DNA from: Escherichia phage RB16
Length of the DNA stretch: 64,000 nt
Reading direction: 5' to 3' (one strand)
Sequence record: NC_014467.1
Positions 31,085 through 34,311 of the stretch are shown here, piece by piece (the first letter of the stretch is position 1; each line of letters begins with the position of its first letter). A program made the translations under genes and the position numbers. The notes beneath the pieces were generated by a model. That model was given only the letters and a program-made list of their open reading frames with translations, was not told where the DNA came from and made no database searches.

Positions 31085-31406
31085 TTCAATACCTCGTTGT
31101 TGTTGAATGAAGCTGATTATAGTGATCACTTTTTCAAAGTCAATAGATCATTTCAAGATTCTGAGCGAAGCGAAGGACACGAACGAAGTGAGTGTCTAAC
31201 TACATAACTACACTTTTAAATTTTTATATTTTATATATAGAGAAAAATGTAGTTTTTGGTATGTTTTTTAACCAATCTTACCTATCCGTTTCGCTTCGCT
31301 CACGGAAACGCTTCGCGTTGATTTTATTAAATAATATAGATTGGAAGTAGGTTTGAAACCTGTAATTCCATCAGCTATAATGAATGTATTCAATTTGGAG
31401 AATATA

Positions 31407-31922
31407 ATGACTACTAAGATTTATGCAGATAATGATAAGCTGTATCCGGTTATGTGTAAGTGGAAACAGCAGATCCGTGAAACTGGAGATCGCAAAATGC
31501 CTGATGACCTGGGTATTGCAATCATGAACATCGCTCACGGTTTGGCCCGTCGATACAACTTCAACCGTTATTCCGAAGATTGGAAAATGGATATGATCGA
31601 TGATGGTATTTCCGCTACGATTTCCGGTTTACACAACTTTGATGAAACCAAATATACAAACGTTTATGGGTATATCAATAAGGCTTGCTGGCAAGCGTTT
31701 GTAACCCGCATTCTCTACGAAAAGAAAGAGAACGCGAAGAAATACAAATACTTCCTGGAACACGTTTACGATAGTGACGATGCTGATATGACTTCGATAG
31801 CTGATGAAACTTTCATTCAGGATATTCATGATAAATTAAATCAGTATGAAGAGTCCGCGAAAAAACCGAAGGATAAAATCGAGGTTGTGGACGAATCGCC
31901 AACTTTGGAAATGTTTCTATGA
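31407..31922 (+). CDS. 55: late-transcription sigma factor (gp55)
   Basis: Start placed at MTTKIYADND (RBS GGAG); KGLHNFDETKY and DETFIQDI.DK..YEES match T4 gp55. Confidence 0.8.
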   Translation: MTTKIYADNDKLYPVMCKWKQQIRETGDRKMPDDLGIAIMNIAHGLARRYNFNRYSEDWKMDMIDDGISATISGLHNFDETKYTNVYGYINKACWQAFVTRILYEKKENAKKYKYFLEHVYDSDDADMTSIADETFIQDIHDKLNQYEESAKKPKDKIEVVDESPTLEMFL

Positions 31923-33523: not shown

Positions 33524-33797
33524 CAGATATGAAAAATATTTCGGTGAGAACCCCCGATATTCTCACCTGTTGCGTATGCTGGGAATGAAACATATCATTG
33601 CCACTTCTGACGAAGCAGGGGAAACCAGCGCAGTTTGTTTGACCATCATGAAGGGTGCATGGCATTCATCACGAACATGGTCAATCTTCATGCTTGATAC
33701 ACTGGACGACGATACGCTATCATATACTATTGATTCATCGGTTGTTCAATTGATCACTGAATTATGTGAACGGATTTTAAATGAAACTAAAAACTAA
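33516..33797 (+). CDS. hypothetical protein (GTG start)
   Basis: 93 aa track ORF beginning on GTG; may be a remnant next to the homing endonuclease insertion. Confidence 0.25.
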   Translation: MHSRYEKYFGENPRYSHLLRMLGMKHIIATSDEAGETSAVCLTIMKGAWHSSRTWSIFMLDTLDDDTLSYTIDSSVVQLITELCERILNETKN

Positions 33798-34311
33798 ATC
33801 ACATGGAGGTGGAAACCGAACAATTGATGATGAAATTTCTTCAATAAATGAACTACTTCCTATGTTGGATGTTGATGTTGTATTAGGAAAGATATACTGG
33901 AAAAACTCACCTCGTAAGAGCGTCCCTGCTGGAACTGAAGCAGGGAGTAAGACAAAACATGGTTACGTTGCTATCGGGTATAAAAAGACGTATTATAGAC
34001 GACATCGAATAATATTTTACGTCGCTAATGGTTATCTTCCTCTCGTAGTAGATCACAAACACGGTGTTGAATCTGGTGATGGAATAGATAACCTGCAAGA
34101 CATCACGCAACAACAAAACTCCGTTAAAATGAGAATGAGTAGAAGGAATTCTTCTGGGTTTAGAGGGGTTTCCTTTCACCAAAAATCAGGAAAATGGCAA
34201 TCATGTATTGTGTATAATAGAAAAACAATATATCTTGGTTTGTATGAAACACCAGAACTTGCACATAGTGCATATACAGACAAGCGAAAAGAATTATTTG
34301 GTGAAATATGA
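33781..34311 (+). CDS. HNH-AP2 homing endonuclease (Mob-like)
   Basis: 176 aa; HNH_3-type core YLPLVVDHKHGVESGDGIDNL and AP2-type DNA-binding region GVSFHQKSGKWQSCI...YLGLYETPELAHSAY; inserted between gp47 and gp46. Confidence 0.7.
   Translation: MKLKTKSHGGGNRTIDDEISSINELLPMLDVDVVLGKIYWKNSPRKSVPAGTEAGSKTKHGYVAIGYKKTYYRRHRIIFYVANGYLPLVVDHKHGVESGDGIDNLQDITQQQNSVKMRMSRRNSSGFRGVSFHQKSGKWQSCIVYNRKTIYLGLYETPELAHSAYTDKRKELFGEI

Follow-up and report, generated by a model that had tools for sequence, protein, structure and literature searches.

T4 is the textbook example of a phage with multiple replication origins. A review of T4 replication describes oriE, oriF and oriG as lying near strand-switch and skew shifts, and the T4 origins as having no motif in common; oriF and oriG need a MotA-dependent promoter together with an A+T-rich unwinding element, and plasmids which carry an origin replicate during T4 infection. 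RB43 has neither a MotA orthologue nor middle promoters (Nolan 2006), so that origins of the T4 oriF/oriG type cannot operate there and phages of the RB43 type need an origin which does not depend on MotA. Since two of the T4 origins are MotA-dependent and most T4 relatives have no MotA, the question arises how these relatives start replication. Among the described initiation signals is the d(GNA) mini-hairpin, which according to a 2026 review is extraordinarily stable and is found at the primase origin of phage G4, at ssiA of the plasmid RSF1010 (CCGAAGG) and in the hairpin promoters of phage N4. Here we analysed a 64,000-nucleotide stretch of the Escherichia phage RB16 genome (NC_014467.1), called the window below, and describe a composite element of about 160 bp (31159-31319) in the intergenic region between rnh and gene 55. 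Our leading but tentative reading is that this element may well be an unwinding element, activated by supercoiling or transcription, which serves as one of three replication origins in phages of the RB43/RB16 type. This is the most economical reading of the data, and such a type of origin would not have been described before for T4 relatives. In the literature on RB43 origins and repeats, T4-like satellites and YagK/YfjJ we found no prior description, with the limit that our coverage was incomplete and an earlier account may exist.

The gap between rnh and gene 55 is 322 bp long (31086-31407), with the start codon of rnh on the minus strand at 31085, set by homology with the Lw1/RB43 annotation, and the ATG of gene 55 on the plus strand at 31408. 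The repeats picked out here by an initial annotation of the window are located as it gave them. The two arms of the 13-bp inverted repeat, TGAGCGAAGCGAA (31162-31174) and TTCGCTTCGCTCA (31290-31302), match exactly, the AT-rich segment lies at about 31213-31247, and the heptamer is found as AACTACA at 31198-31204 and 31206-31212 and in inverted form, TGTAGTT, at 31248-31254. The 13-bp repeat alone is borderline: when the region was shuffled 1000 times with dinucleotides kept, 48 shuffles contained a perfect inverted repeat of at least 13 bp. The element as a whole is real: it is kept in 63 phage records with three copies per genome, and its stems covary.

Using the rnh/55 intergenic region as query, three matching places were detected in almost every related genome in these records, and a 41-nt probe matched 183 places in 62 phage records, which corresponds to three per complete genome. 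In Escherichia phage Lw1 the ~155-bp unit is found as copy 1 at 31672-31826 (rnh/55), as copy 2 at 100698-100854, between gp3 and an open reading frame (ORF) of 261 amino acids and beside genes 2, 4, 53 and 5, and as copy 3 at 135685-135827 (gp24/uvsY). No further copies were found inside the 64-kb window of RB16, the other two copies of which lie outside the window (L024 and L025). The distantly related Pantoea phage Phynn and Yersinia phage JC221, with intergenic DNA of only ~70% identity, also have three copies at the same three loci. The element does not behave as a miniature inverted-repeat or other transposable element: every genome examined has it at the same three loci, and a flanking duplication is not visible in the copies of Lw1, Phynn and JC221 inspected for it. 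This presence of three copies at fixed syntenic loci in about 60 Pseudotevenvirus genomes as well as in Phynn and JC221 argues for an origin.

From left to right, each copy consists of two hairpins, two direct heptamers, an invariant AT core of ~35 bp, an inverted heptamer, an asymmetric spacer and two hairpins on the opposite strand. In RB16, hairpin A (31159-31177, plus strand; TTCT-GA-GC-GAA-GC-GA-AGGA) holds the left 13-mer and has an outer Watson-Crick stem, tandem G.A/A.G pairs, two G-C pairs and a GAA triloop. Hairpin B (31175-31197, plus strand; (G)GACAC-GA-AC-GAA-GT-GA-GTGTC(T)) has either GAA or GTA as loop. The two direct, iteron-like AACTACA heptamers follow at 31198-31212 on the plus strand, and the second of them is the left arm of the inner inverted repeat. 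The AT-rich core (31213-31247; …TTATATTTTATATATAGAGAAAA…) is near-invariant across copies and lineages. It is followed on the plus strand by the right arm of the inner repeat, ATGTAGTT (31247-31254), which contains the inverted heptamer, and by the conserved spacer TTTGGTATG-TTTTTTAACCAA… (31255-31285), which has no counterpart on the left side in an alignment of 26 copies. On the minus strand, hairpin C (31286-31305; CCGT-GA-GC-GAA-GC-GA-A-ACGG) holds the right 13-mer, and hairpin D (31307-31319; AACGC-GAA-GCGTT) was also scored terminator-like on the plus strand.

By nearest-neighbour energies, no duplex in the 64-kb window is less stable than the AT core, whether calculated over 30, 40 or 60 bp. 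At all three sizes the three cores of Lw1 take ranks 1, 2 and 3 for low duplex stability in its genome of 176 kb, with 40-bp values of -36.4, -36.5 and -38.6 kcal/mol and -40.9 kcal/mol for rank 4. This duplex instability is another argument for an origin. We looked for a promoter inside the core, of the sigma70 type, the late type TATAAATA or with a Mot box, and rejected it, since no conserved match is present; the one exact TATAAATA is that on the minus strand of copy 2 in Lw1.

The arms around the core differ between lineages and keep their complementarity: they read AACTACAY/ATGTAGTT, ATGTACTG/CAGTACAT, ATGTCTAC/GTAGACAT or ATGTCCAC/GTGGACAT. Six of the nine pairs of this inner stem have changes on both sides and 92.6% of the cells are paired, a value not reached in any of 500 shuffles, while slid controls were 25-51% paired. 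The heptamers are AACTACA, ATGTAC, ATGTCTA or ATGTCCA depending on the lineage, with the same type in all three copies of a genome, and the heptamer is directly repeated just upstream of the core, which gives two direct and one inverted heptamer in every copy. Such a change in step across three copies points to concerted evolution, and the heptamers are possibly recognised by a lineage-specific protein. A covarying inner stem whose heptamers change in concert would fit an origin as well.

The initial annotation had interpreted the two 13-mers as a long-range inverted repeat which flanks the core. This had to be given up, as both are instances of one hairpin motif that pairs locally with itself. 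The motif can be written as 5'-stem-GA-NC-GNA-GN'-GA-stem'-3', with a GNA triloop closed by C-G, two Watson-Crick pairs, tandem G.A/A.G pairs in a 5'-YGAR-3' context and a free outer stem. The constant G and A of the loop, the free N and the C-G closure are the signature of d(GNA) DNA mini-hairpins. Hairpins A and C are complementary because they carry the same motif in opposite orientation. Folding of the full DNA strand pairs them over the long range (z about -4.6). We rejected this pairing as a functional structure, since copy 2 of JC221 and copy 3 of Phynn have unrelated left and right stems and the loop bases differ between the two sides. Judging by the alignments, it is the local hairpin pairing alone that is conserved.

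All five stems, namely those of the four hairpins and the inner repeat, covary. Between copies and lineages the outer stem of hairpin A appears as TTCT/AGGA, TTCC/GGGA, AAAC/GTTT, AAAT/ATTT and AAT/ATT. Hairpin B has the compensatory variants ACAC/GTGT and TCAC/GTGA, and in Phynn its inner pair A-T is replaced by C-G (ACGAAGT vs CCGAAGG). The stem CCGT/ACGG of hairpin C is changed to CCGTC/GACGG in copy 2 and to GTTCTA/TAGAAC in Phynn, and AACGC/GCGTT of hairpin D to AGCGC/GCGCT and CAACGC/GCGTTG, again with compensation. In some copies, Watson-Crick pairs substitute for the G.A pairs (CCGACC-GAA-GGTCGG, TTCGC-GAA-GCGAA and ATGACC-TTC-GGTCAT). Over 37 distinct hairpins, 95 out of 148 flank positions are complementary in contiguous pairing, compared to 51±5 after permutation (reached in 0 of 5000), and the loop N is A in 28, T in 6, C in 2 and G in 1 of them, with the loop G and A invariant. 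The polarity is fixed throughout the copies, including those with a replaced hairpin sequence: the GNA is on the plus strand on the left and on the minus strand on the right, so the GNA strand of all four hairpins runs 5'->3' towards the element centre. Covarying, polar d(GNA) hairpins of a type found at the G4 and RSF1010 priming sites argue further for an origin. In the whole Lw1 genome, hairpins with tandem G.A pairs are confined to the three elements, and we therefore rejected them as general terminators.

Both sides of the element carry outward sigma70-like promoters, as the initial annotation had proposed, with 11 of 12 consensus positions matched on each side; all promoter calls in this study are consensus matches. 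The promoter into rnh (31116-31143, minus strand; TTGACT-16-TATAAT) is kept in RB43, Phynn and JC221 and lies outside the repeated unit, and the one into gene 55 is TTGAAA-17-TATAAT (31353-31381, plus strand). A rightward promoter follows the element at all three loci and a leftward one precedes it at two. At copy 3 a strong leftward promoter, TTGACC-17-TATAAT, abuts the element (Lw1, L008 35654-35682; its equivalent in RB16 is in L025). It runs antisense into the 3' end of gp24, serves no gene and is conserved in JC221; a promoter without a gene would be in line with an origin. The same promoter resembles the rightward uvsY promoter, so that the inverted symmetry of copy 3 reaches into the promoters.

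The cumulative GC skew has two minima, one at copy 1 and one at copy 2, and these coincide with the two major divergent strand switches. According to the T4 record, oriF is located at the 5' end of uvsY, oriG in gene 34 at 2.2 kb from the rnh start and oriE in gene 5 at 3.4 kb from gene 3. Of the copies of the element, copy 1 is directly next to rnh, copy 2 is within the 1-3-2-4-53-5 block and copy 3 adjoins the promoter of uvsY. The skew minima and these neighbourhoods of oriE, oriF and oriG are also in favour of an origin. In Klebsiella phage KP15 (Slopekvirus) no sequence homology to the element was found in the three syntenic intergenic regions (L084 4783-5086, L082 562-930 and L083 634-937). 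With an A+T content of 75-82%, these regions are as unstable as those of the element, and each of them has 5-10 GATC sites. That the same loci are A+T-rich and GATC-bearing despite unrelated sequence is consistent with an origin function of the loci. Separately, we observed arrays of promoter-like TTGAYC-17-TATAAT sequences in the KP15 regions, and the palindrome CTACAATGATCATTGTAG in one of them.

A homologue of the 261-amino acid ORF to the right of copy 2 (Lw1 gp190, L008 932-1717; phrog_7322) sits at this locus in all relatives and also in KP15. No informative match to Pfam, PHROG or PDB was found for the ORF, and by its position the protein is a candidate for a factor acting on the element. 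It reads from an early-type consensus promoter immediately right of copy 2, amid late structural genes.

The element also occurs outside the phages. We detected it complete (80-85% identity, 94% coverage) on the 10.8-kb circular plasmid pTR_1_35 (MT833377), on a Citrobacter freundii plasmid and on the chromosomes of E. coli CX12 and CX08. It is further present in a single GTDB contig and in ~15 contigs from metagenomes, the size of one of which is 5.36 Mb. Scanning a genome collection yielded just one more mobile-element contig together with an unrelated GC-rich repeat. These copies belong to a family of integrative or plasmid elements of ~11 kb in enterobacteria (L090; L092 8665-20167; L093, L095, L099, L100, L102, L108 and others), whose backbone consists of a large serine recombinase, an HUH-like Gp2, a resolvase, LprI-like and OB-fold genes and variable cargo. 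The CX12 mobile element (L092 8665-20167) is integrated beside a truncated malX, and one protein in the cargo of pTR_1_35 matches the PADLOC defence model Ppl over its full length (1466 bits). A second but incomplete copy of hairpins A and B comes after the element in pTR_1_35. Almost all mobile-element copies are found 205 bp downstream of a gene for an 'inovirus-type Gp2' of ~240 amino acids. This protein scores above the curated cut-off for PF11726 and just short of it for PF23343 (Rep ORF2/G2P), has an HYH motif and belongs to the YagK/YfjJ family.

The mobile-element copies have no strong adjacent promoters. Their heptamers are of types I, II and III, the same as are found in different lineages of the phages, and their cores are copy-1-like or copy-2-like with chimeric halves. 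Gp2 proteins of 96% identity go with different heptamer types, and one type goes with proteins which are only 78-86% identical. The transfer of the whole element minus its promoters, the phage-matched heptamers and the chimeric halves indicate that the ~160-bp unit is a self-contained, exchangeable cis-module which is exploited by the mobile element. By all indications, the specificity of a mobile-element copy follows the phage and not its own Rep-like Gp2. A portable module beside a Rep-like gene is a further point for an origin, given that T4 origin plasmids replicate in infection.

In the mechanism we have in mind, strong outward promoters would, early in infection, pump negative supercoils into the DNA between them, and the AT core, as the least stable duplex of the genome, would melt. 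The covarying arms of 8-11 bp could then pair within each strand and hold the AT loop of ~31 nt open. As the bubble spreads, the four C-GNA-G mini-hairpins with their tandem G.A pairs may extrude on the strand running 5'->3' towards the centre, and the hairpin-bearing strand would be the template for outward leading-strand synthesis. Such a stable open structure with junctions between duplex and single strand might receive the helicase loader, helicase and primase, with loading possibly guided by a lineage-specific protein on the heptamer repeats. The opening of the strands, the start of replication at the element and the proteins acting there are what we infer. Going one step further, it is conceivable, if unlikely, that this origin of the RB43/RB16-type phages was captured by the widespread family of ~11-kb integrative elements, which would keep re-matching the heptamer type to circulating phages and would thereby be amplified, perhaps packaged as concatemers, by the T4-like replisome. 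As origin plasmids replicate in T4 infection, origin capture would be a sensible strategy for a mobile element.

The proposal of the initial annotation that the region is origin-like or binds a regulator has thus gained much circumstantial support, from the instability of the core, the three loci near T4 origin genes, the skew minima and the capture by mobile elements. Several points weigh against an origin. We found no experimental replication data for any member. The direction of transcription is a confounder for the GC-skew minima as well as for the strand switches, and the match to T4 origins, a comparison made post hoc, is exact for uvsY only, the other two being 2-5 kb off. Because the promoters face away from the AT core, the R-loop mechanism of T4 oriF cannot be carried over as it stands. 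We identified no initiator protein in the phage, of which the proteome was not screened in full. A double hairpin which stands alone in sense orientation in other phage contigs (see below) may leave room for a role at the RNA level or another role of the hairpins. Moreover, the capture by mobile elements fits a packaging, recombination or sensing site equally.

An alternative, which we consider unlikely, is that the element controls or insulates transcription: the heptamers and hairpins would bind a phage or host regulator or absorb supercoils, and in this way time or insulate the early promoters of 55, uvsY, the gp3-side ORF and rnh. The promoters at the three loci would suit this, two direct and one inverted heptamer resemble protein-binding sites, and without MotA the genes which are 'middle' in T4 (55 and uvsY) need another timing device in RB43. 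Against this, the mobile-element copies keep the element without strong adjoining promoters, the distance from core to promoter varies from 0 to ~120 bp, dozens of other early promoters have no such element, and the strict hairpin polarity and the three weakest duplexes are left unexplained. The neighbourhood of Gp2 in the mobile elements, together with its Pfam matches and HYH motif, raises the idea of an origin or nick site for an HUH (rolling-circle) initiator, where the central stem-loop and iterons would be the target of Gp2 and the phage copies would be nicked by Gp2 or by an unrecognised phage analogue. HUH-Rep origins are typically built of iterons, a stem and a loop, and the element, with iterons, a covarying stem and an invariant loop, would fit this build in form. 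We nevertheless judge this idea distinctly unlikely: a Rep-like gene adjoins the element in the mobile element but not in the phage, where neither tblastn nor a profile HMM search found a Gp2 homologue, the heptamer type and Gp2 identity do not track each other, and strict conservation at three loci in all phages argues for the phage's own use.

It is very unlikely, in our view, that the hairpins act in transcripts as structured RNA, for example in processing, stability, termination or riboregulation. Covarying stems, the lone double hairpin which in contigs of distant phages shortly precedes genes and is in sense to them, and the terminator-like score of hairpin D with its T-run would agree with such a role. 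The predicted promoters, however, face away and none is predicted within the element, and the strand with the stable purine version of the hairpins is not the same on the left as on the right, so no single transcript carries all four. Furthermore, a C-GNA-G triloop with free N is a DNA motif, the confinement of the hairpins to the three elements of Lw1 does not suit general terminators, and no Rfam family matches, as the scan gave four chance-level hits (E >= 1.2), none of them over the element. The least likely of these alternatives, to our mind, is a hot spot for packaging initiation or recombination at which the phage machinery acts and which the mobile element copies for packaging or for recombination with the phage. 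Satellites typically copy cis-sites of their helpers, and the chimeric halves and several heptamer types imply repeated recombination between mobile elements and phages. On the other hand, packaging of the T4 type is headful and has no required site, three equally oriented copies per genome would be unusual for a pac site, and core instability and hairpin polarity would again be left unexplained. None of the alternatives accounts as well as a replication origin for an unstable duplex, a fixed strand polarity of the hairpins and a portability that does not depend on promoters.

In uncultured phage contigs a double hairpin, GAGCGAAGCGA … CAC-GAACGNAGTGA-GTG, stands alone and is nearly letter-identical (L077 = L097 4743-4785, L119, L107, L112, L113, L116, L117, L026/L051, L027 and L106). 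In a distant T4-like contig with the order uvsW-ORF-55-47 it lies 50-90 bp upstream of the gp55-like gene, and in aquatic contigs it is directly upstream of another ORF, always in sense orientation. A contig of Mycobacterium palustre (L094 90-330) has a GC-rich tandem repeat of ~68 bp with the same 17-mer CACGAACGTAGTGAGTG beside GAGCGAGCG motifs. This repeat is probably unrelated to the element, though the identity of the 17-mer is striking.

Over ~4.5 kb around the element, RB16 shares 97% identity with Escherichia phage Lw1 and 93% with RB43, two members of Pseudotevenvirus. The genes 32, 59, 33, dsbA and rnh are arranged in this order on the minus strand, followed by gene 55, two small ORFs and genes 47 and 46 on the plus strand. 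The gap was described initially as the only long non-coding stretch of the window, which agrees with a next largest gap of ~180 bp in the first 64 kb of the 97% identical Lw1 annotation. It was also called the strand-switch point, which is right for the major switch; smaller ones are also present at a mobE-like gene and at gp27. Small ORFs run over the element at 31107-31199 and 31192-31350 of the window, as well as in L087 (42-188) and L088 (52-186), and some GenBank records list them as 'hypothetical protein'. We rejected them as genes, since they are not conserved, with ATG-TAG here and no start codon in other lineages; the calls are probably spurious, on non-coding hairpin DNA. Between genes 47 and 46, the DNA is ~540 bp longer than in Lw1 and contains an ORF of 176 amino acids (33781-34311), which by eye looks like an HNH + AP2-type homing endonuclease. 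The ORF and the extra length fit a report that RB16 is rich in genes for homing endonucleases of the AP2 type.

A single element of ~160 bp with a clear and mutable anatomy makes the start of replication in T4 relatives directly testable. If the element is an origin, the extraordinarily stable d(GNA) mini-hairpin would gain a natural role in a double-stranded DNA phage. The defence-carrying integrative elements with their phage-matched variants point to an unrecognised interaction between T4-like phages and mobile elements. Had they captured an origin, they would be the first satellites or infection-amplified defence islands of T4-like phages, and a natural counterpart of the laboratory 'T4 origin plasmid' system.

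Compared to the known systems, the element is like T4 oriF (uvsY) and oriG (34) in being a short cis-element (~100 bp in T4) with an A+T-rich unwinding element next to a promoter, in occurring several times per genome and in lying near strand-switch and skew shifts, with copy 3 at the uvsY promoter as oriF and copy 1 beside rnh. It differs in that the copies of the RB16 type share ~155 bp, whereas the T4 origins have no common motif, and in that the AT core is flanked by hairpins and heptamer repeats. In T4, a MotA-dependent middle promoter transcribes into the unwinding element and forms an R-loop. Here, MotA is absent from the lineage, the Mot box TGCTT is absent from 31086-31407, and in consensus scans the strong promoter matches point outward with none inside the element. 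With oriE of T4, which has iterons, it has in common short repeats, the baseplate-gene region and an early instead of a middle promoter, and copy 2 is in the same gene block; unlike in oriE, the repeats are 7 nt long and lie in an intergenic element ~4-5 kb away, and no likeness to oriE in sequence was seen, though no comparison aimed at it was made.

The PeSL cassettes of RB49 and phi1 are also repeated, recombination-prone intergenic composites of a sigma70 promoter and a stem-loop in T4-type phages. The element is not one of them: PeSL cassettes number ~50 per genome, lie in hyperplastic regions and have terminator stems of G-tracts and C-tracts with the promoter within the unit, whereas the element has three copies at fixed core-genome loci, GNA mini-hairpins and promoters outside the unit. 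The hairpin promoters of the N4 virion RNA polymerase and the G4-type primase origin are likewise extruded DNA hairpins with GNA-type loops of 3 nt which act as initiation signals for a polymerase or primase. They are used, however, by the dedicated N4 virion RNA polymerase or by host DnaG on single-stranded phage DNA, neither of which is known for T4 relatives.

In the oriV of RSF1010 (IncQ), iterons and an A+T-rich region come together with the hairpin priming signals ssiA and ssiB, which are inverted on complementary strands, and the CCGAAGG mini-hairpin of ssiA is of the same C-GAA-G type as the hairpins of the element. Every copy of the element has short repeats beside an A+T-rich region and hairpins inverted on complementary strands, a likeness of form only, with priming being putative. 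RSF1010 differs in its 20-bp iterons bound by RepC and its dedicated primase RepB', while for the element no cognate initiator or primase was identified in a partial screen of the proteome. It also has two hairpins instead of four, and the heptamers of the element are arranged as two direct and one inverted around the AT core. By analogy, RSF1010 oriV would be the nearest architectural counterpart of the element, and T4 oriF, oriG and oriE the nearest functional ones.

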